A DNA stretch of 64,000 nt from a virus. The DNA lies in IMG/VR virus record IMGVR_UViG_3300043395_002359, positions 1-64,000 of that record; one strand, 5' to 3'. This document shows positions 1-63,266 of this stretch, one piece after another. The notes under the pieces were generated by a model. That model had not been told where the DNA came from, searched no databases, and was given only the letters and a program-made list of their open reading frames with translations. The stretch's first letter is position 1, and the number at the start of each line of letters is the position of its first letter. The position numbers were made by a program, and so were the translations under genes.

Positions 1-49
1 GCGGGCCGTTCACGATCTCGCGGCCCGCACCACGCATAGGAGCCCTCCA

Positions 50-283
50 ATGTCCATCACCGCCAAGTCCACCAAGTCCGAAATCTGGGACGCCTACCAG
101 GCCCTGCTCAAGCAGTCCCAGGCCGAAGTCGTCACCCCGGTGGCGATCCGCAACACCGCTCAAGCTGTCGCGCATGAGACTCTTGAGCTGGCAAGGGATC
201 TCCAGCGCCTGGGCGCCTGGGGCCGCTACCAGATCACCGAGTTGATCAAGATTTACAACAGGCCGGTGCTGAAAGCCGACTGA
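50..283 (+). CDS. Cassette gene, hypothetical (77 aa), inverted relative to its neighbours; paralog of 4122-4364
   Basis: AGGAG RBS; TGA stop overlaps the repeat arm (TGATCGTGA); alignable by eye to 4122-4364. Confidence 0.85.
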   Translation: MSITAKSTKSEIWDAYQALLKQSQAEVVTPVAIRNTAQAVAHETLELARDLQRLGAWGRYQITELIKIYNRPVLKAD

Positions 284-315
284 TCGTGATCAACTGACCT
301 GCGGGCCGTTCACGA

Positions 316-591
316 TCATTCGTAATCATGCGGCCGGTTGCGCTCCCATTCCATTGCTTCACACCGGGCCGTGTGCCAGGCATCCCTGAGGTCGCTGGCG
401 AGGCTCACCAGATCAGCCCAGCCCAGCGCTTCAACCGCCTCTTCTACCTCCGGTTCGCCGCAGTCGTCCAGCATGTAGTAAACCCAGGTGGCGTCGATCT
501 CTGACAGATCCTCGGGGATGCTGAACGTCCCCAGGTTGTTCAGGTAATCCCAGGCGAGGTCGTTTTCAGTGATGATTGGCGTGGTGGTCAT
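316..591 (-). CDS. Cassette gene, acidic hypothetical protein (MTTTPIITEND...)
   Basis: TAGGAG RBS, sigma70-like promoter upstream, stop overlaps the repeat arm. Confidence 0.85.
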   Translation of the reverse strand: MTTTPIITENDLAWDYLNNLGTFSIPEDLSEIDATWVYYMLDDCGEPEVEEAVEALGWADLVSLASDLRDAWHTARCEAMEWERNRPHDYE

Positions 592-613
592 TGGAAAACT
601 CCTATTCGAATCG

Positions 614-642
614 AGTGTAGCACGAAGCGAGATCGTGATCAA
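614..642 (-). promoter_or_regulatory. Sigma70-like promoter TTGATC-N17-TACACT with extended TG; the -35 lies inside the repeat
   Basis: Minus strand reads TTGATC acgatctcgcttcgtgc TACACT. Confidence 0.6.
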
Positions 643-675
643 CTGACCGGCGGGCCGTTCACGATCTTGCTCTTA

Positions 676-873
676 TCATACAGCGATCGGGGCGTTACTG
701 GCAATAAACCTCTGGGCCTGATTCTGATCGATCCAGTAATGCCGATCAGTCCCGATCCTAAACGCAACCTCCCAGATCAATAGGGTGGCAATGCGGCGAT
801 CGACCTTGAAGTGATCAGCAACCCAGCTAACGGACTCAGTAAAGCTGGAGCAGGGCAGGCGGTGGGTTGACAT
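676..873 (-). CDS. Cassette gene, hypothetical (MSTHRLPC...)
   Basis: TAGGAG RBS; fills the space between two repeats. Confidence 0.8.
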   Translation of the reverse strand: MSTHRLPCSSFTESVSWVADHFKVDRRIATLLIWEVAFRIGTDRHYWIDQNQAQRFIASNAPIAV

Positions 874-930
874 TGGAATTCTCCTAGTGGGTGACTTGAT
901 CGTGAGCAATGACCGGCGGGCCGTTCACGA

Positions 931-1152
931 TCAATTCCAGGTTGAATCAGCGGCTGCCTGGCTTCTGACGTAGGAGGAAATCCCGAAGAATCTGCCGTCA
1001 GCCTTCATTTCCTTGGCTGCCACAATGGCCTGGTCCATCGTGTCAAACCATTCCGTAACGGGTCGCGTGCCGCTGGCGGTGACGAACCGCTCAACGTAGA
1101 TGCTGTAACGCCGGCCGCGAGAAGCGAGATTGCGGAATTTGTAGGTTGTCAT
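931..1152 (-). CDS. Cassette gene, hypothetical (MTTYKFRNL...)
   Basis: ORF between repeats; stop overlaps arm; TTGCTC-N17-TAAGGT upstream. Confidence 0.8.
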   Translation of the reverse strand: MTTYKFRNLASRGRRYSIYVERFVTASGTRPVTEWFDTMDQAIVAAKEMKADGRFFGISSYVRSQAAADSTWN

Positions 1153-1260
1153 GGGAAATGCCCGATTGAGTGAATTTCCGAAATTTCCGGAATTGCCTGG
1201 TGGCCCTCCCACCTTAGCACCGATCCTGATCGTGAGCAATGACCGGCGGGCCGTTCACGC

Positions 1261-1419
1261 TCATGATTCGTAACCTATCACCTCCTCGGCCCGTTCCCGT
1301 TCGTTCAGGGCCTCAATCCAGGCGATGTCTTCCTGCAGGCGCTCGAGCAATTCCTCGAGCAGTTCCAAGCTGGCGGTCTCTCGCTCGAGCCAGCGATCAA
1401 AGGATTCAGCGACAGTCAT
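1261..1419 (-). CDS. Cassette gene, small acidic coiled-coil protein (MTVAESFDRW...)
   Basis: AAAGGGAG RBS; stop overlaps arm; Glu/Leu-rich. Confidence 0.8.
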   Translation of the reverse strand: MTVAESFDRWLERETASLELLEELLERLQEDIAWIEALNERERAEEVIGYES

Positions 1420-1485
1420 TGGGGTCTCCCTTTGGTTCAATGATAGCATGGTGAGCGTGAGCAATGACCGGCGGGCCGTTCGCGA

Positions 1486-1899
1486 TCACGCTGCAATCCT
1501 AGCAGCTTGCTGCAGGATGTAGTTGTCAGCGTCAAGGCGCATGGCCCACTCGTCTGAGCCTTCCCAGGCCCCGTTCGAAGCGTACCACGTAAAATCCTGC
1601 TGGCTGATGCCCTCGCCTGGCACGAAGGCCCGCAGGAGGGCGTTAAGGCGTGATTTCGTGGTGTTGGTGCGGTAGCCGCAATCGCTCAGGCGGATCCGCA
1701 TCATGTCTGGCTCCACCACGCCGATCAGGTTGCCATGCAGGCGGATCTCGATTTCGCGGTAGTAGCCTGGCGTATGGGCGATGCCGTGGTGGACCTGGGT
1801 GACCTCAGTGTTGCCGCACAGCAGCAGCCGGCCGTCCCTGGCAGCGGCGCCCAGGCCGTCGCGGATGGCTTGAATCATGCGGGCTTCGACGACTCTCAT
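1486..1899 (-). CDS. Cassette gene, cyanophage-type conserved hypothetical protein
   Basis: AAAGGGG RBS; motif LHGNLIG...GYRTNTTKSRLNALL resembles a family I recall from cyanophages; stop overlaps arm. Confidence 0.85.
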   Translation of the reverse strand: MRVVEARMIQAIRDGLGAAARDGRLLLCGNTEVTQVHHGIAHTPGYYREIEIRLHGNLIGVVEPDMMRIRLSDCGYRTNTTKSRLNALLRAFVPGEGISQQDFTWYASNGAWEGSDEWAMRLDADNYILQQAARIAA

Positions 1900-1954
1900 G
1901 GGATTTCCCCTTTGGTGGTTTGATCGTGATCAATGACCGGCGGGCCGTTCGCGA

Positions 1955-2149
1955 TCACGCGCAGTATCCCATTGGCTGGCCAGCTAGCGTGTGGCTCTGA
2001 ACCACGGAATGGCGCATCCACATCCTGACAGTGTTGTATTCGCCAGTGAAACGATCGCCGTCCCAGCGGTTGGCTACGGCGCGAGCCTGGGCACACTTGG
2101 CCAGGTTCAGCTTGGCAAACATGGTCAGTTCCGGGAAGTCGTAGTTCAT
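1955..2149 (-). CDS. Cassette gene, hypothetical (64 aa)
   Basis: AGGGA RBS; stop overlaps arm. Confidence 0.75.
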   Translation of the reverse strand: MNYDFPELTMFAKLNLAKCAQARAVANRWDGDRFTGEYNTVRMWMRHSVVQSHTLAGQPMGYCA

Positions 2150-2312
2150 GGGGGGTCCCTGTAGCGGATTCAGTCTAGGGCTTGGAATTGGTGGATGGGC
2201 GTGGATCGTAGCAATTCTTGATCGTGATCAATGACCGGCGGGCCGTTCGCGATCACGTTCTGGGCTTCCTGCATTGCACCAGGAATACTAGGGAACACGC
2301 ACTCCTGGGTCA

Positions 2313-2582
2313 ATGGCTGAAAAGAAACGCAACACGATGGACTATTACAAGTCTCATCCTGAGGCGTACAAGAAGAAGATGGAGTACGAGGCGCAGAGAA
2401 GAAAGACTGACAGGGAGCGCGAGAGGTATAACCAGCGCCGCCGGTTCAAGCGGGCGCATGGGCTTGAAGGCAAGATGGGCAACCGTGATGTCAGCCACAC
2501 GAAGGACGGGAAACTCGTCCTGGAGAACCGTTCGACCAACAGGGCTCGAAACGGAGAGGGCGGTCGTCGCACACTGAAGTGA
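2313..2582 (+). CDS. Small basic HNH-like protein; paralog of 52140-52439
   Basis: SHPEAYKKK...DVSHT...EN.S.NRARNG shared with 52140-52439. Confidence 0.85.
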   Translation: MAEKKRNTMDYYKSHPEAYKKKMEYEAQRRKTDRERERYNQRRRFKRAHGLEGKMGNRDVSHTKDGKLVLENRSTNRARNGEGGRRTLK

Positions 2583-2667
2583 CCGGTGCCTGCGATTGCC
2601 GCCTCAGTGCCGTTCGCACCTGCCACATTGCATTGTGACCGGATGTAAATTGCAGTAAGTGGGCAAT

Positions 2668-2691
2668 AAAAAAGGCCCCCATGTGGGGGCC
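2668..2691 (-). terminator. Intrinsic terminator for 2713-3060
   Basis: GGCCCCC-ACAT-GGGGGCC stem followed by a T run on the minus strand. Confidence 0.8.
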
Positions 2692-2712
2692 GTTCTCAAC
2701 AGTCTCAGACTC

Positions 2713-3060
2713 TCAATCCTCCCAGTCAATCAGCGTCACCAGGGCAACTTTGATCCTGACGGGATACTTGTCATTGAGCAAGGTGGTATCCCTCATCTTC
2801 AGCCACACGTCATTCATCTCATCCCAGATCATCACGTCGCCCCGGCTGTAGCGCCGCTGGGCGTCGTCCTGTACGGCAAGCGGGCAGGCGCCACCGATCT
2901 CGAGGTCTACAGTGGCGTCTGGGCGGATCACCAGCTCCCAGCCGGCATCGGCGGGGGTCAGGCCGAACCGGCCGAGCGTGTAGGCCAAGTCGCACCACTC
3001 GAGTGTGCAGGCGTTGTACCGAGCCTCGGCAGGGGCGGGGCGGGACTGCAGGTAGGTCAT
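2713..3060 (-). CDS. Hypothetical protein in module A (MTYLQSRPAP...)
   Basis: ORF between a TTGACG/TAGAAT promoter-like pair and a terminator. Confidence 0.8.
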   Translation of the reverse strand: MTYLQSRPAPAEARYNACTLEWCDLAYTLGRFGLTPADAGWELVIRPDATVDLEIGGACPLAVQDDAQRRYSRGDVMIWDEMNDVWLKMRDTTLLNDKYPVRIKVALVTLIDWED

Positions 3061-3330
3061 GGGAATGATCCCGTTGGACTCCCCGATTCTAACCACGGAT
3101 CCCGGCGGATCGTCAACCCTCTGGCACTAATTATAAAACAAGGTCTGGCTAAATATAGCTAACTAGGCCGAGAAAGCACCTGCGATCCGACCGAAGGGCC
3201 GTTCGCAAGTTCCGAACGGCTTGATTGATTGCCAGCGGCGGGCGCCCGGTGCCTGCGATAGTCGCCTCAGTGCCGTTCGCAGTTGCCAGATTGCACTGTG
3301 ACTGAGTGTAAAGTTGTGGCAGGTAAGCAT

Positions 3331-3354
3331 AAAAAAAAGGCCCCTTTCGGGGCC
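3331..3354 (-). terminator. Intrinsic terminator for 3382-3624
   Basis: GGCCCC-GAAA-GGGGCC followed by T8 on the minus strand. Confidence 0.85.
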
Positions 3355-3381
3355 CCGGTGTAAGCAGTCTCACCAGTCTCG

Positions 3382-3624
3382 TCACTCCTCCTGTGCGTGG
3401 GCGTTGGTCATTAGGTAGTCGTGCAGGCTGAACAGCCAGCGCGTCGCGTCGCTGTAGAACTCGAACGCCTCGTCTGTCATGCCGTCGTCGCTGCTGATCT
3501 GGCTGCGGGCCAGGTCTGTGAGCTGAGAGACGGCGTACAGCATGCCGAGCCGGAAGGCGGTGCCGTCGCCGGCACACTCCTGCTGGCGCTCTGCCTCGAT
3601 GGCGATGGACTTCATTGCGGCCAT
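3382..3624 (-). CDS. Hypothetical protein in module B (MAAMKSIAIE...)
   Basis: Same flanking frame as module A; TTGACG-N18-CATACT upstream. Confidence 0.8.
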   Translation of the reverse strand: MAAMKSIAIEAERQQECAGDGTAFRLGMLYAVSQLTDLARSQISSDDGMTDEAFEFYSDATRWLFSLHDYLMTNAHAQEE

Positions 3625-3779
3625 GGGATTAACCCGATTGGACTCCCACAGTATGGGCACGGCCGTGCCTGCCCGTCAACCCTCAGACGCTAATTGATAA
3701 TTAGCATCCGGCTAAATATACCTAACAACCCCGAGATGGCACTTGCGATTCGACCGAAGGGCCGTTCGCAAGTTCCGCT

Positions 3780-4091
3780 TCATTCGCGCTGGTAGCCCAG
3801 TTGGTCAAGCCGGCGCTCAAGGCGCTGGCAGTCCTCTTCGCTGCTGCACTGGGCCTCGAGCTGGTACCACTCCATTCCAGGGAAGGGGACGAGGTTCGCG
3901 GATACAACGGCCACCGGCCCGGATGCCCCAGGATGGTGGATCAGGACTGACTGGGCCTTGCCTTGCAGGCCGTAGAAGATGCAGGCCAAGCCGATGCCGA
4001 GGCCGATGGTGCCGCCGAGGAGGTTGTCTTGCACTGGAAGGGTCCTTTGGTGGTGGTGGTGCGGCTGTACCGCATGGAATGATCTTAGCAT
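3780..4091 (-). CDS. Cassette gene, putative membrane protein (true start may be an internal GTG)
   Basis: Hydrophobic LLGGTIGLGIGLACIFYGL; fills the inter-repeat interval. Confidence 0.7.
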   Translation of the reverse strand: MLRSFHAVQPHHHHQRTLPVQDNLLGGTIGLGIGLACIFYGLQGKAQSVLIHHPGASGPVAVVSANLVPFPGMEWYQLEAQCSSEEDCQRLERRLDQLGYQRE

Positions 4092-4121
4092 GGAACCTGC
4101 GATTCGACCGACGGGCCGTTC

Positions 4122-4364
4122 TCAGGTGCCTTGGCTTTTGAAGATTGGCCTCCTGTATGTATCAATCACCAGTGTACAGCATGACCGCAGCCAGCGGCCA
4201 GCCTGCTGACAATCCTTCACAAAGAGCGGCAGTTCGCGTGAGACGGTCGAGACTGTACGCTGCATCAGGGTCGGTACGTCGCTCCAGGTGACAGGGGGCC
4301 GAGCCTCGGCGGCCTCCAGGCGGGCGATCAGTTCGGCCTTGGTCAAGCGGGAGTGTGCAGTCAT
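4122..4364 (-). CDS. Cassette gene, paralog of 50-283
   Basis: TKAEL...RTV..V.RE...DCQQAGRW.R...IDTYRRPIFK matches 50-283; C-terminal GT-stop is encoded by the repeat arm. Confidence 0.85.
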   Translation of the reverse strand: MTAHSRLTKAELIARLEAAEARPPVTWSDVPTLMQRTVSTVSRELPLFVKDCQQAGRWLRSCCTLVIDTYRRPIFKSQGT

Positions 4365-4437
4365 GGAAGTGTCCGATGGTGGTTTGTGTAACGAACTTGG
4401 CTGAGAAGGGTACCTGCGACTGACCGACGGGCCGTTC

Positions 4438-4611
4438 TCAGGTGCCAGGCTGCACGGCCCTGGCGACCCGGCACCCCATGACATCGCAGTACACGGTGGC
4501 GGTACCGGGCTTGGCCGCCTTCCGCGGCCCGCCGAACGGAACGAGGATCACGGCCGTTGCCATCGCGCCGAGCAGCAGGCCGGCAGCAACAGAGGAGAGA
4601 GGAGCCTTCAT
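4438..4611 (-). CDS. Cassette gene, small membrane or secreted protein (MKAPLSSVAAGLLLG...)
   Basis: N-terminal hydrophobic stretch; C-terminal GT-stop is encoded by the repeat arm. Confidence 0.75.
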   Translation of the reverse strand: MKAPLSSVAAGLLLGAMATAVILVPFGGPRKAAKPGTATVYCDVMGCRVARAVQPGT

Positions 4612-4650
4612 GGTTGGATGGATGAGAATGGGATTGTCCCTTTCGGTGTC

Positions 4651-4679
4651 AGTGTAGGGCCGATGGTCATGCATGTCAA
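4651..4679 (-). promoter_or_regulatory. Near-consensus sigma70 promoter TTGACA-N17-TACACT pointing into the array
   Basis: Minus strand reads TTGACA tgcatgaccatcggccc TACACT. Confidence 0.8.
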
Positions 4680-4713
4680 GGTACGTGCGACTGACCGACG
4701 GGCCGTTCTCAGG

Positions 4714-4854
4714 TGCCTGCTGCCTGCCTGCCCTGCCTGCCTGCCCTGCCTGCTGCCTGCCCTGCCTCGATGCATCACGCACAAGCAGCGAGGCGATGGC
4801 ATTGCGTTGGCTCTGCCCCTGCCTGCTGCCTTGCCTGCTGCCTGCTGCCTGCTG
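4714..4854. repeat. Low-complexity TGCC/TGC tandem repeats, two tracts
   Basis: tgcctgctgcctgcctgccctgcc... at 4714-4768 and about 4814-4854. Confidence 0.9.
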
Positions 4855-5008
4855 TCATGTGGTGCCTCTCTTGATGCCGGTGCTCGCCGGGGGGTTTGCC
4901 GCCTGGGCGCCAGGAGGCCTGGGTACCCCCACCCCCGATTCCTGGAAAGCCAATCCGAGACAACCCCCTCAGGAAATTTTTCAAAAAAACTGGTACCCTA
5001 GAACAAAA

Positions 5009-6969: not shown

Positions 6970-7574
6970 TACCATTTGAAGAATATTACTGGGTATTAAA
7001 GAGGTCATTTCCTGGTGACGATGAATTCAGCATATGGAACTATTGGAAGTTACCATATTGTTATGTAATAGAAGCTGTACAACAGAATGCGACATTACGT
7101 CACCAGGAACTACATGAATCAGAGGTACCGATTGCACTGCTTGCCTGTCAGCAGGCTGAAATGAATCGCGACCGCAAGAAAAGTAAGAAGCCATTTGTGC
7201 TTAGTGATTTTTATTGTTACGCAATACAAGATGAAGTCGACAGTATTGATGCAACACCTGGTGCAGCAGCGAAGAAGATCATAGAACTTGGAAGGTTCCC
7301 GAATTGGGCACTATTTGTTTATAAAGATTTAATGAAGAATGCCGATAAGGGTAGGGCGCCGAATGTTTTATGTTATTTAAGTGATAATGTCATTATTATT
7401 GCACCAAGGATTACGGGTACTCATTGTGTCGGCCTAGTAATTGCACTGGAATCTGCATCCAATAGGATAGTACAGCTACAAACATTGGATGGTGATGATG
7501 CTGTTCGAGTACGGATGCCAATATTAACAGGTCAAACGGTTGCTATTGAAAATTGCTATCTAGATATTGCTTAA
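6942..7574 (+). CDS. -1 frameshift extension (gpT-like) of the tail assembly chaperone
   Basis: The -1 frame is open from the slippery site (AIKATQPDLIPFEEYYW...) into ORF 7161-7574. Confidence 0.65.
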   Translation, partial: AIKATQPDLIPFEEYYWVLKRSFPGDDEFSIWNYWKLPYCYVIEAVQQNATLRHQELHESEVPIALLACQQAEMNRDRKKSKKPFVLSDFYCYAIQDEVDSIDATPGAAAKKIIELGRFPNWALFVYKDLMKNADKGRAPNVLCYLSDNVIIIAPRITGTHCVGLVIALESASNRIVQLQTLDGDDAVRVRMPILTGQTVAIENCYLDIA

Positions 7575-7973
7575 GTTTTCATCGATTGATGATGATTCAT
7601 GATCAGCTAGTAATCTTTTTGCGTCTGCTTCACTTAGTACGATATCATTATTAAGCCAATAGTCAATTCTGAATTCTTTCCATTCTTCATAGAATGATTG
7701 AGTGCGAAACCATGGTCTCCATTCGTATGACCCTTTAGAGGCGTTACATTTCTTATCTGCTGGAACAATATTTGTCCTTAGGTCTTCACCTCCTTTGCAT
7801 TTTGCTTTAACATGATCAAGGGTAAGGCTGGAATCATCAATTGGTGGTTTGCCACAATAGGCACAACAGTTATTCCAGCTACTTTTAATGGCTTCACGCC
7901 ATAGTTTTTTAGCTTGTCGATTATTAAGGGCTTCCATGTTATACAAATAGTCACTGATACGTTGATACATCAA
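7560..7973 (-). CDS. HNH endonuclease
   Basis: CAYCG...TLDHVKAKCKGG...NIVPADKKCNASKG. Confidence 0.9.
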   Translation of the reverse strand: MMYQRISDYLYNMEALNNRQAKKLWREAIKSSWNNCCAYCGKPPIDDSSLTLDHVKAKCKGGEDLRTNIVPADKKCNASKGSYEWRPWFRTQSFYEEWKEFRIDYWLNNDIVLSEADAKRLLADHESSSIDENLSNI

Positions 7974-8204: not shown

Positions 8205-8639
8205 GTGGCACAATCAAGGGTAAGTTCACCGGATGATATATATGATGCATTATATGCTGACACGACGTTTATGTCCTATATTGGTGAGTATAAATTCATT
8301 AATTCTACTGTTACCCAATCGGCTTTTAGTATTGTAACTCCAAACATTCCGATACCGAACCTAGAGGGTGTGACCGGTCTTGAGGTTGTTATACATGATG
8401 TAGCGTCTGTTTCGCGAAAAGATTTCATAACTGATCCCAGTCTTTCGCTGTTAACATATCAGTTATACTTAATATTATGGACTGGTGGCACTGGTACGCA
8501 GCTAACTGATGCTACAAAAAGAATTGTCGAGACGTTTTCCGGTGCCAGGAGTATGTTAACGGTACCAATTAATAAGACACCGAATGTTGCTATACAATCG
8601 ACAGTTGAAATACCGGATAATGCTCTAATTTTGACATAA
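8205..8639 (+). CDS. Putative tail terminator protein
   Basis: 144 aa directly upstream of the tail tube gene; position and size. Confidence 0.5.
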   Translation: MAQSRVSSPDDIYDALYADTTFMSYIGEYKFINSTVTQSAFSIVTPNIPIPNLEGVTGLEVVIHDVASVSRKDFITDPSLSLLTYQLYLILWTGGTGTQLTDATKRIVETFSGARSMLTVPINKTPNVAIQSTVEIPDNALILT

Positions 8640-8766: not shown

Positions 8767-9369
8767 ATGGCAAACATTTCGACCGCTTTCGGCTACGACG
8801 TTTACATCATTCCTCTGGCCTCTAGCGCAGTGGACACTGCCTTCACTGGTGTTACCGGTGGTATCGGTGCTGGTTCTGGCAAGTTCATCGATACGACGAC
8901 TCTGGTTACCCCTGGCGACGCCGTTACTTATACCAATGGTATCTTTACCGTTGAGGCTAGCGCTTTCGCGATGGACGGCGGTGACAATCCGGTGAAGCTG
9001 TATGGCCTGACCAATGCCGCTCTGGAGACTGACACCAACTCGGAAGAAGTGGTGACCTATGACTCCACGACTGGTGGTTTCAACCTGAGCCTGCCTACCT
9101 CCAAGACCTGGAGCATCTCCCTGGCTGGCGTGGCTGACTTCAAGGACGCTGGTTATCACATCATGCGTCTGACTGAGCAGAACACCGTGAAGGACTCCCT
9201 GCGCGTGAAGTTCGGCCGTCTTGGCCCCACCGGCACCGACGAGGTGATCTACGGTTACGGCACTCTGAGCGGCTACACTGAGTCGATCGAAGCTGGTTCT
9301 ATCGTGTCTTGGGAAGCCACGATTGAAGGTTATGGCGCTTATGTCATCAACGTTGACGCTAACACCTGA
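8767..9369 (+). CDS. Major tail (tube) protein
   Basis: Strongly biased codons; SKTWSISLAG, GYTESIEAGSIVSWEATIEGYG; followed by a terminator and the tape measure gene. Confidence 0.85.
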   Translation: MANISTAFGYDVYIIPLASSAVDTAFTGVTGGIGAGSGKFIDTTTLVTPGDAVTYTNGIFTVEASAFAMDGGDNPVKLYGLTNAALETDTNSEEVVTYDSTTGGFNLSLPTSKTWSISLAGVADFKDAGYHIMRLTEQNTVKDSLRVKFGRLGPTGTDEVIYGYGTLSGYTESIEAGSIVSWEATIEGYGAYVINVDANT

Positions 9370-58711: not shown

Positions 58712-59422
58712 ATGGCAGACGTACCCAATCTCGCTGGTATTGCAACCCAGGACTTAGTTGAGACCATTGGTAGTGGCTCCTACAAGGCCAGTTACATAAA
58801 CTGGGCCAGGACCATGAACCTGCTGCATGAGCACGCTCCTGGCTGGGCTCCTGAAATGCTGCCTACCAGTGATGGAGGCTGGGTCCACCCGGCCCCTGGT
58901 TCAGGCGGCTTTCTGATGATTCGCTTTGTCCACACCGATGGATCCGTGCGGCCCGCTTACCCGCAAAGCATCATGGATCATCGAAACAATGCCATACCCT
59001 TAGATAAAATCACGGCCAGAGACGTAACCGACACACATAGACGCGGTTCCTGTATGGCCGCTGCCATGGAATTTGGCTTGGGGCATGAGCTGTGGGCAAA
59101 GATGCCACTGGAAAGTGGCTACCATGACGAGCCAGGAACCGCTCCAAGCAGTCCTACTACAGCAGGCTTTAAGGCCCAGAAGTCAGCGACCCAGAAGGAC
59201 TTCCTCGAGGCTTGTCTTGATAAAGGTCTTACCAGTTATGCAGCGGATAATCTCCTGAGTCTGATCAATGGCAATTACGAAGGAGGCCTCAGAACACTGG
59301 CAAGTAAAACGGTAGAATGGGTTGCCGAGCAAAACGCAAAGGCAGAGCCCCCTACTGAGGAAGCACAGAATAGCAAAGCACCAAAAAAGACAACAAGCAA
59401 GCCGAAACCGGAGGATTACTGA
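58712..59422 (+). CDS. Sak-like single-strand annealing protein (DUF1071-like)
   Basis: SYINWA...IMDHRNNAI...ARDVTDTHRR...AAAMEFGLGHELW. Confidence 0.75.
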   Translation: MADVPNLAGIATQDLVETIGSGSYKASYINWARTMNLLHEHAPGWAPEMLPTSDGGWVHPAPGSGGFLMIRFVHTDGSVRPAYPQSIMDHRNNAIPLDKITARDVTDTHRRGSCMAAAMEFGLGHELWAKMPLESGYHDEPGTAPSSPTTAGFKAQKSATQKDFLEACLDKGLTSYAADNLLSLINGNYEGGLRTLASKTVEWVAEQNAKAEPPTEEAQNSKAPKKTTSKPKPEDY

Positions 59423-62404: not shown

Positions 62405-62426
62405 TGTGGATCATATTGGTCGATGC

Positions 62427-63266
62427 ATGGCCGCCGTCGCGTATAACCAGCCCGATGCTGACTACCGCAGAGAGCTTGGCGAAAACCAGAGCTACCTGAA
62501 GAACATACTGGTAAGTCCTGCTCACTACAAAGCAGCGAAGGTAAGGCGCTTTCCTGTTACCACAAATATGGAAGTCGGTTCGGCTCTTCACTGCAAGGCG
62601 CTTGAAGGTGATGATGAGTTCAACCAAAGGTTTTTACTGAAACCAGATGGTATAGCTTTTAATACCAAAGAAGGGAAGGACTGGAAGGCTTCAAACAAGG
62701 GAAAGACTATTTTAGCGAAACAGGACTATGACAATGTCCTGGGAATGGCAGAAGCACTGTCTAGATTCGACTGGTTTAATCCCGATCAACCTGATTACAG
62801 GAAATACAACGAACTGTCTATCTATTGGGAGGCGGATGGCATCCCCTGCAAGGGAAGGCTCGACAGACTGGTCGAGATGGATGACCATCTTCTTGTCTTG
62901 GATCTTAAGACAACTGATTCAGTTGATTTCTCTACCTTTTTGAAAAAAGTTGTAGGGGGAATGAACTATGTATTTCAGGCTGCCTGGTACGCTGAGGCCG
63001 CTAGCCTGGCTTTTAATAAACCAGCTAAGTTCGTCTTTATCGGCATCGAAAGAGCCGAGCCTTGGGCTACAGGCGTTTTCGAGGTGTCAGATGACATGAT
63101 GACAGAAGGTATTGCTCAAATCAACAAAGCAAGAAAAATATTAAAGGAATGCCTTAGGACCAAGGAATGGCCAAGGCCCAAAGTATCTTATAATGTGCTT
63201 GAGCTACCTACGTGGTACCGCACGCTAGCCGACGAAGGTTCCATTCACGAAGGAGACCTATTCTGA
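62427..63266 (+). CDS. PD-(D/E)XK exonuclease, RecE/exonuclease VIII-like (DUF3799)
   Basis: QSYLK..SPAHY, GSALH, ELSIYW, CKGRLDRL, DLKTT, Y.FQAAWY. Confidence 0.88.
   Translation: MAAVAYNQPDADYRRELGENQSYLKNILVSPAHYKAAKVRRFPVTTNMEVGSALHCKALEGDDEFNQRFLLKPDGIAFNTKEGKDWKASNKGKTILAKQDYDNVLGMAEALSRFDWFNPDQPDYRKYNELSIYWEADGIPCKGRLDRLVEMDDHLLVLDLKTTDSVDFSTFLKKVVGGMNYVFQAAWYAEAASLAFNKPAKFVFIGIERAEPWATGVFEVSDDMMTEGIAQINKARKILKECLRTKEWPRPKVSYNVLELPTWYRTLADEGSIHEGDLF

Follow-up and report, generated by a model that had tools for sequence, protein, structure and literature searches.

The window analysed here, a stretch of 64,000 nucleotides that forms the first 64 kb (bases 1-64000) of a 93,040-bp IMG/VR virus record, opens with an array of small-gene cassettes set between repeats (Table 1). 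Each repeat is 38 bp long and consists of a left arm (TGAnCGTGA), an oriented core of 19-20 bp ending in GGGCCGT and a right arm (TCrCGnTCA). The two arms are mutual inverted copies, and the TGA in each faces the neighbouring gene. Eight type A copies lie within 1-2255, and the diverged types B and C at 2587-4720; the window has 12 matches to the core motif on the + strand and none on the - strand, where chance alone would give 0.28. Repeats 4-6 have one common core and repeats 7 and 8 are identical, as are all of the repeats in a related array, L144. The array has a GC content of 0.60, versus 0.46 in the remaining genome.

Table 1. Coordinates of the cassette array, its principal features and the recombination-related genes in the window.
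Feature	Position	Strand	Remarks
Cassette array	1..4720	.	~13 small genes separated by arm-core-arm repeats
Repeat 1	1..18	+	Truncated by record start; last 9 core bases 1-9, right arm TCACGATCT 10-18
Flipped cassette, including both arms	10..289	+	RBS TAGGAG at ~37-42; no recognisable promoter of its own
Gene 1 (77 aa)	50..283	+	No Pfam or PHROG family
Repeat 2	281..318	+	Left arm 281-289 (gene 1 stop), core 290-309, right arm 310-318 (gene 2 stop, - strand)
Gene 2 (91 aa)	316..591	-	Usual orientation; L109 homologue 8779-9075 (-)
Repeat 3	630..667	+	Rare left arm AGATCGTGA after GCG, 20-bp core variant, right arm TCACGATCT
Gene 5 (52 aa)	1261..1419	-	L109 homologue 8354-8511, opposite relative to cores
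Second + strand gene (phrog_6437)	2313..2582	+	Between repeat 8 and degenerate repeat ~2587-2625; canonical terminator 2674-2691 beyond
Gene 1 paralogue	4122..4364	-	Usual orientation; 32% identity to gene 1
HNH endonuclease	7560..7970	-	3 kb from array; generic candidate nuclease
Sak-type single-strand annealing protein	58712..59419	+	Homologous-recombination module with nuclease
PD-(D/E)XK nuclease	62406-63263		Partner of Sak

Gene 1 reads from the + strand and its neighbours from the - strand, and the flanking cores are unflipped: cores 1-9, 290-309 and 639-658 are co-directional, with only nine bases of the left one visible because the record starts inside repeat 1. This arrangement, the central claim of the first-pass annotation, can be read directly in the sequence. 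The same holds for its observation that the cassettes of genes 1 and 2 open with the same 12 bp and close with a stop inside an arm. The 12-mer TCACGATCTCGC occupies bases 10-21, with its reverse complement at 627-638, and gene 1 stops at the TGA 281-283, with which the arm TGATCGTGA (281-289) opens; gene 2, followed along its coding strand, begins after TCACGATCTCGC (the reverse complement of 627-638) and stops in TGATCGTGA (the reverse complement of 310-318). Just within the 5' arm of gene 2 lies an extended -10-like box, TGCTACACT. The open reading frame 50-283 is a real gene, as it has a paralogue in the same array (4122-4364) and eight homologues in other, related arrays (loci L013, L109, L299, L302, L304 and L306; E values down to 6e-12).

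Complete arm-core-arm units are retained at the ends of arrays, as in repeat 8 of the window, L109 (7900-7937), L299 (about 1680-1716) and the leftmost repeat of L305; these outer arms argue against a reading of the cassettes as TIR-bounded transposons that duplicate the core. Several further elements were noted in and around the arrays. A degenerate third repeat type, CCTGCGAT..GCCGCCTCAGTGCCGTTCGCA, occurs twice in the window (2587-2625 and 3245-3285), followed both times by a conserved ATTGCAYTGTGAC and then a GC-stem/T-run terminator on the - strand (2674-2691 and 3337-3356). To the left of the L299 array, at about 950-990 in core orientation, is an arm pair, GATCGTGA ... TCACGCTCA, in which the asymmetric core is replaced by a perfect palindrome, AATAAGCGC TT GCGCTTATT; this element may be related to the repeat as a symmetric form, or may be ancestral to it. 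The GC content of the arrays (0.57-0.60 in window 1-4720, L109, L013, L144 and L299; 0.52 in L302) compares with 0.43-0.51 in the flanking phage DNA, which suggests that cassettes circulate among phages or hosts of differing base composition while the repeat stays constant.

The record, which CheckV classes as linear and 100% complete, is an uncultured freshwater cyanosiphovirus related to S-CBS2 and S-CRES: its large terminase is ~70% identical to those of the Synechococcus siphoviruses S-CRES1-3 and S-CBS2, and the metagenome runs containing the sequence are from freshwater and freshwater sediment. It encodes a DnaB-type helicase, a primase, two sigma factors, ThyX, ribonucleotide reductase and a ligase, in addition to the Sak single-strand annealing protein and the PD-(D/E)XK nuclease, and one cassette gene (1486-1899) falls into the Kyano_Gp96 family. 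At the right end (G000 91000-93040), paralogous small genes with a WGADQELEAC motif run past the last base; as the record ends inside a gene, it is not closed, and a stretch of undefined length lies between its two ends. The array repeat is absent from bases 1-50000 of S-CBS2 and the repeats match no Rfam family. Neither blastn of bases 1-5000 nor tblastn of gene 1 gave a match in the 'phages' collection; an exact 31-mer of gene 1 had no match in viral contigs, and a search for related loci with gene 1 alone as the query returned no relative. Scanning genome contigs for the repeat yielded only single chance matches in unrelated bacteria, with no clue to the host. An origin of the arms as a relic of HIP1 was ruled out, as GCGATCGC has a count of zero in the genome despite the CGATCG-like arms.

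Cassette orientation and expression signals

Core-motif scans of viral and metagenome contigs gave a census of 12 loci, each oriented by its own cores. Related arrays occupy the same genomic position, directly upstream of the same structural genes (L013), and the same architecture is present in the independent contigs L109, L299, L302, L305 and L306. Across the 12 loci, about 11 of the 61 cassettes are flipped, against none of the ~76 repeat cores; one apparent flipped core in L299 proved to be a chance 9-mer within a gene, without arms. Flipped cassettes even lie next to each other with an unflipped core between them (L109 8530 and L302 6618). Flipped cassettes start directly after a right arm in at least 9 of 11 cases and use the first TGA of the next left arm as their stop in 7 of 11.

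Three protein families are known in both orientations. One is the family of gene 1, whose homologues all lie opposite to the core strand, leaving gene 1 as the sole member in the 12 loci that reads with the cores. The others pair gene 5 of the window (-) with L109 8354-8511 (+), at 52% identity, and L109 8572-8747 (+) with L299 3028-3270 (-). The orientation of homologous cassettes in relatives had been named in the first-pass annotation as a check on the inversion, and the eight gene 1 homologues, lying the opposite way, bear the inversion out. Homologous cassettes are ordered differently in L109, L013 and L299, and one flipped cassette retains its orientation between L302 and L306 at 75% DNA identity.

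For both strands of repeat 2, folding predicts a hairpin (-18.6 and -20.9 kcal/mol, z about -3.5), and other perfect copies likewise fold at -18 to -21 kcal/mol on both strands, whereas mismatched copies fold more weakly and are not set apart from shuffles. Over 65 repeats, complementarity of the arms within a repeat was no better than random pairing (p about 0.8), and compensatory selection on stem pairing was dropped on this ground; arms across a cassette pair slightly better than random in the same set, at a level that is not significant (p about 0.1). The only sites that a terminator scan returned, 2674-2691, 3337-3356 and 4955-4972, all lie away from the type A repeats, and no T-run follows the repeat hairpin, the terminator role being judged here from sequence only.

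Counted purely as consensus matches, an extended -10-like TGnTAnnnT box lies immediately interior to the 5' arm in 17 of the 50 cassettes of usual orientation and in 6 of the 11 flipped ones, and a full promoter-like TTGACN-N15-19-TAnnnT match occurs in 10 cassettes. Promoter-like boxes of their own, some of them TTGACA-17-TACAAT, are carried by 7 of the 11 flipped cassettes; they are not significantly commoner there than in cassettes of the usual orientation (about 20 of 50). Textbook promoters within flipped cassettes were seen at L302 6150-6230, L302 8883-8960 and L306 609-690, in the forms TTGACA-17-TACAAT and TTGACA-17-TATCAT with TGC. In the window, a promoter-like TTGACC-17-TAGTAT on the - strand (2313-2285) faces left into the type A sub-array, back to back with the + gene 2313-2582, and may drive that sub-array. 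The cassettes thus resemble autonomous 'moron'-type units for which either orientation is tolerable.

Breakpoints and independent assemblies

Gene-oriented alignments of the gene 1 and gene 5 cassettes with their homologues bring arms and 5' leaders into register, with the flanking cores as mutual reverse complements; the breakpoints of both families therefore lie within the arms. The earlier placement of the inversion boundaries at the arms is hence upheld, with the breakpoints inside the 8-9-bp arms themselves, and so is the accompanying argument that recombination between direct repeats is unable to invert a segment. Repeats 2 and 3 provide a second line of evidence. They share a rare 20-bp core variant, and the 12-mer of repeat 3 (GCG plus AGATCGTGA) occurs elsewhere only as the reverse complement at the 5' end of the flipped cassette. 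If 10-289 is turned back in silico, the identity of repeat 2 to repeat 3 rises from 39/47 to 42/47 and the otherwise unique GCGAGATCGTGA reappears at repeat 2, beside the rare 20-bp core. The simplest history would be that repeats 2 and 3 are sister copies and that cassette 1 was later turned, its arm ends moving along with it; from this, we infer that the flip occurred in place. The breakpoints are not uniform across loci, however. The variant TCGCGATCA, frequent among right arms and without a mirrored counterpart among left arms, has remained with the repeat where L299 cassettes are flipped; the arm variant in the window, by contrast, seems to have travelled with the cassette.

To assess the junctions outside the IMG/VR assembly, Logan contigs from four runs of four studies, one of which may be the source sample, were compared over bases 1-1300. 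In two runs (X1 and X2), one contig extends from 404 nt left of the record start, through repeat 1, to base 257, and in X1 a second contig spans 235-926 without difference. Crossing both junctions as they do, these contigs support both, and the chimeric assembly that the first-pass annotation had raised against its own reading is not what they display. The unitig at the left junction has ~2x the depth of the next one and is unbranched at the arm. No strand-change joint was present in the contigs of the four runs, a form of data in which rare orientation variants are hidden. The X1/X2 contig over gene 1 and the 404 nt upstream ends near base 257, which suggests a second strain variant with the left junction in common that diverges in the last 25 bases of gene 1. 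A contig of a further run (X3) skips exactly from 896 to 1227, with 33 shared letters, so that cassette 4 (931-1152) is gone between repeats 4 and 5; a cassette has here been lost by exchange between direct repeats.

The bridged junctions, the lack of strand-change joints and the stability between L302 and L306 together point to flips that are fixed and heritable, not switching, within the limits of contigs that are blind to rare variants. Of the site-specific inversion proposed in the first-pass annotation, one part stands, namely that the cassette is inverted relative to the usual orientation of its family, with the eight homologues opposite. A site-specific event in the sense of an enzyme-driven, reversible switch is not supported: the 93-kb record contains no tyrosine or serine recombinase, Y1 transposase or Cas1, the contigs of the four metagenomes no strand-change joint, and the L302/L306 flip is stable.

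Origin of the inverted cassette

The history that we favour, and consider reasonably probable, is that repeat-bounded cassettes are shuffled at the repeats and occasionally inverted by exchange in the inverted arms, the flip then becoming fixed. Bases 1-4720 are an accessory-gene (hyperplastic) region of self-contained cassettes, each of which starts with a 5' arm, frequently followed by a promoter, continues with an RBS and a small ORF, and ends in a stop codon within the 3' arm. Cassettes would be gained, lost and reshuffled through recombination over the 38-bp repeat, and a single cassette would be turned by an exchange limited to its 8-9-bp flanking inverted arms, which would leave both cores untouched; the flip of 10-289, fixed in the population, would be one such derived inversion. 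Anatomy, recurrence, arm breakpoints, fixation and the loss of a cassette between direct repeats are demonstrated, whereas the turn in place and its route are inferred. The turn itself could proceed either by microhomology or template switching at the inverted arms or by cutting and rejoining at the base of the hairpin, and either route probably uses general phage recombination and repair functions (Sak, the PD-(D/E)XK nuclease, ligase and HNH). Sak and the PD-(D/E)XK nuclease together make up the homologous-recombination module of the phage and are a candidate driver of repeat exchange; a ligase and, near 82 kb, a weak HNH/EndoVII-like ORF are present besides the HNH endonuclease close to the array. 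In the 93-kb record there is no match to the tyrosine recombinase family PF00589 (controls were positive) or to Cas1 (PF01867), and no serine recombinase or Y1 transposase.

Several observations weigh against inversion by exchange in the arms. Eight to nine bases are very short for homologous recombination, the L299 flips leave TCGCGATCA with the repeat, apparently unlike the flip in the window, and gene 1 is without a recognisable promoter of its own. In addition, random arm-to-arm inversion would be expected now and then to turn a pair of cassettes along with their intervening core, and no core is flipped. The lack of flipped cores, even between adjacent flipped cassettes, implies counter-selection of flipped cores or a mechanism acting on single cassettes.

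A mechanism of the latter type is the basis of the orientation-independent insertion also put forward in the first-pass annotation. In the form considered here, each cassette would be placed singly between repeats by a dedicated mechanism. This might work like the uptake of CRISPR spacers, by staggered cuts at the outer edges of a repeat that is then duplicated, or through a structure-specific nuclease at the hairpin base. Either orientation would then be possible and a core could never flip, in keeping with the contrast between unflipped cores and ~11 singly flipped cassettes, adjacent flips included, with the complete arm-core-arm units at array termini, with the rare right-arm variant that stays in place at the L299 flips and with the frequent identity of neighbouring repeats (the cores of 4-6, repeats 7-8, L144). 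Such local identity is equally expected from gene conversion, however, and the closer match between repeats 2 and 3 once the cassette is unflipped favours a turn in place; Cas1, integrase, invertase and Y1 transposase are all missing from the 93-kb record, and no candidate enzyme is linked to the arrays. On balance, we regard insertion of this type as rather unlikely. Still somewhat less likely is that the arms are the working sites of a recombinase-free form of cassette handling in cyanophages, where a structure-specific cut at the hairpin base, or a staggered cut with repeat duplication, releases or inserts one cassette in either orientation, although cutting at the arms one cassette at a time would explain single-cassette flips without core flips. 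Insertion of a circle through the arms was rejected, as it would leave a flipped core and none exists. If gene 1 had instead been acquired already flipped, by ordinary repeat recombination from a donor array, the frequent exchange implied by the non-collinear cassette order between relatives and the heritability of flipped cassettes would both be accommodated, but within the 12 loci gene 1 is alone in its family in having the + orientation, the sister relationship that repeats 2 and 3 show once unflipped suggests a local event, and the inversion would only be moved to an earlier genome, not removed; we consider this origin distinctly doubtful.

That 10-289 is a programmed, reversible switch, flipped by a phage or host invertase to toggle gene 1, is very improbable. 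Inverted arms do flank the segment, and the expression of a gene without its own promoter would depend on orientation. Nevertheless, arms of 9 bp around a 280-bp segment, identical at every other cassette, give no specificity; no recombinase gene is present in the record, the flipped cassettes of L302 and L306 are stably inherited, and both the unbranched left-junction unitig at about twice the neighbouring depth and the contigs of all four runs lack any sign of the alternative joint. An assembly artefact, with the terminal cassette misjoined at a repeat at the record end, is barely credible: the record does begin in repeat 1, arrays break many assemblies at repeats and several related contigs start in a repeat, but the error would require a strand switch within the 9-bp arm at each end, a length below that of any assembler word, and would have to coexist with Logan contigs from different studies that cross both junctions unchanged and with the same architecture in L109, L299, L302, L305 and L306.

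Comparison with known cassette and inversion systems

The closest analogue of the array is provided by the PeSL (promoter-early stem-loop) cassettes of T4-type phages, small ORFans in a hyperplastic region (Arbiol et al. 2010, PMC2839356; Comeau et al. 2014, PMC4122927). In that system, a composite repeat of stem-loop and promoter bounds each gene, cassettes come and go precisely at the repeats, and the recombination machinery of the phage itself is assumed to be responsible, there being no dedicated recombinase (PMC2839356, PMC4122927). Both systems have a repeated intergenic stem-loop between small ORFs, here with 12 repeats in 4.7 kb, and both undergo insertion, deletion and replacement at the repeats, represented here by the cassette loss in X3 and by the reordered L109, L013 and L299. 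The array differs from PeSL in belonging to a cyanosiphovirus, not a T4-type phage, and in its sequence, with a 9-bp stem that has built-in stop codons, a conserved asymmetric loop of 19-20 nt and no T-run after it. A recognisable promoter is present in only a third to a half of the cassettes here and, unlike in PeSL, ~1 in 6 cassettes is flipped, with breakpoints in the stem arms. The word 'inversion' is absent from both PeSL papers, in which 'orientation' and 'inverted' are used only for PCR primers (PMC2839356, PMC4122927).

Integron attC sites and CALINs, which also occur in virulent phages (Qi et al. 2023, PMC9892861), share with the array promoter-poor single small genes, foldable imperfect palindromes, stop codons at or in the site and, for CALINs, no integrase nearby. 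The repeat here is nonetheless only 38 bp long, and its long loop is conserved in sequence, which the attC loop is not. An attC site measures 57-141 bp and contains paired boxes, GTTRRRY/RYYYAAC, with GTTRRRY as the R' consensus. The junction of core and arm reads GTTCACG or GTTCGCG in all copies, placing pyrimidines where purines are required. Cassettes of integrons flip only together with attC, whereas here the core never flips; the record lacks IntI, but CALINs do so too, and the class is not excluded by that absence alone. Because the sequence features of attC fail and, in addition, there is no integrase, the repeat as read falls outside the integrons and CALINs that PMC9892861 describes.

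Invertible segments such as those of Hin/Gin/Cin, the R64 shufflon and the RecV switches resemble cassette 10-289 in that short inverted repeats flank a segment found either way. They differ in that the present record has no invertase gene, no population shows both orientations in the contigs of the four runs and the 8-9-bp arms are common to every cassette. With CRISPR arrays, the array has in common partly palindromic 38-bp direct repeats in one orientation, inserts lying either way and neighbouring repeats that are most alike; unlike CRISPR, the inserts are genes of 200-450 bp, Cas1 is lacking and there is no evidence of repeat duplication on insertion.

Repeat-bounded arrays of small accessory genes have now been observed in many phages, and they raise the question of how genes move without an integrase. 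On this question, the present array bears in two ways: the breakpoints of its flips lie in the 8-9-bp arms of the stem and spare the longer homologous core, and the complete lack of flipped cores restricts the possible mechanisms, the two together making plain homologous recombination alone unlikely. The cassettes, for their part, must function as expression units in either direction. As the system is abundant in several freshwater metagenomes, it could be tested once a host-phage pair has been isolated. Accessory cassettes bounded by repeats are known from phages, and the flip is not reported in PMC2839356 or PMC4122927; what the array adds to these known systems is the recurrent flipping of single cassettes at the stem arms.
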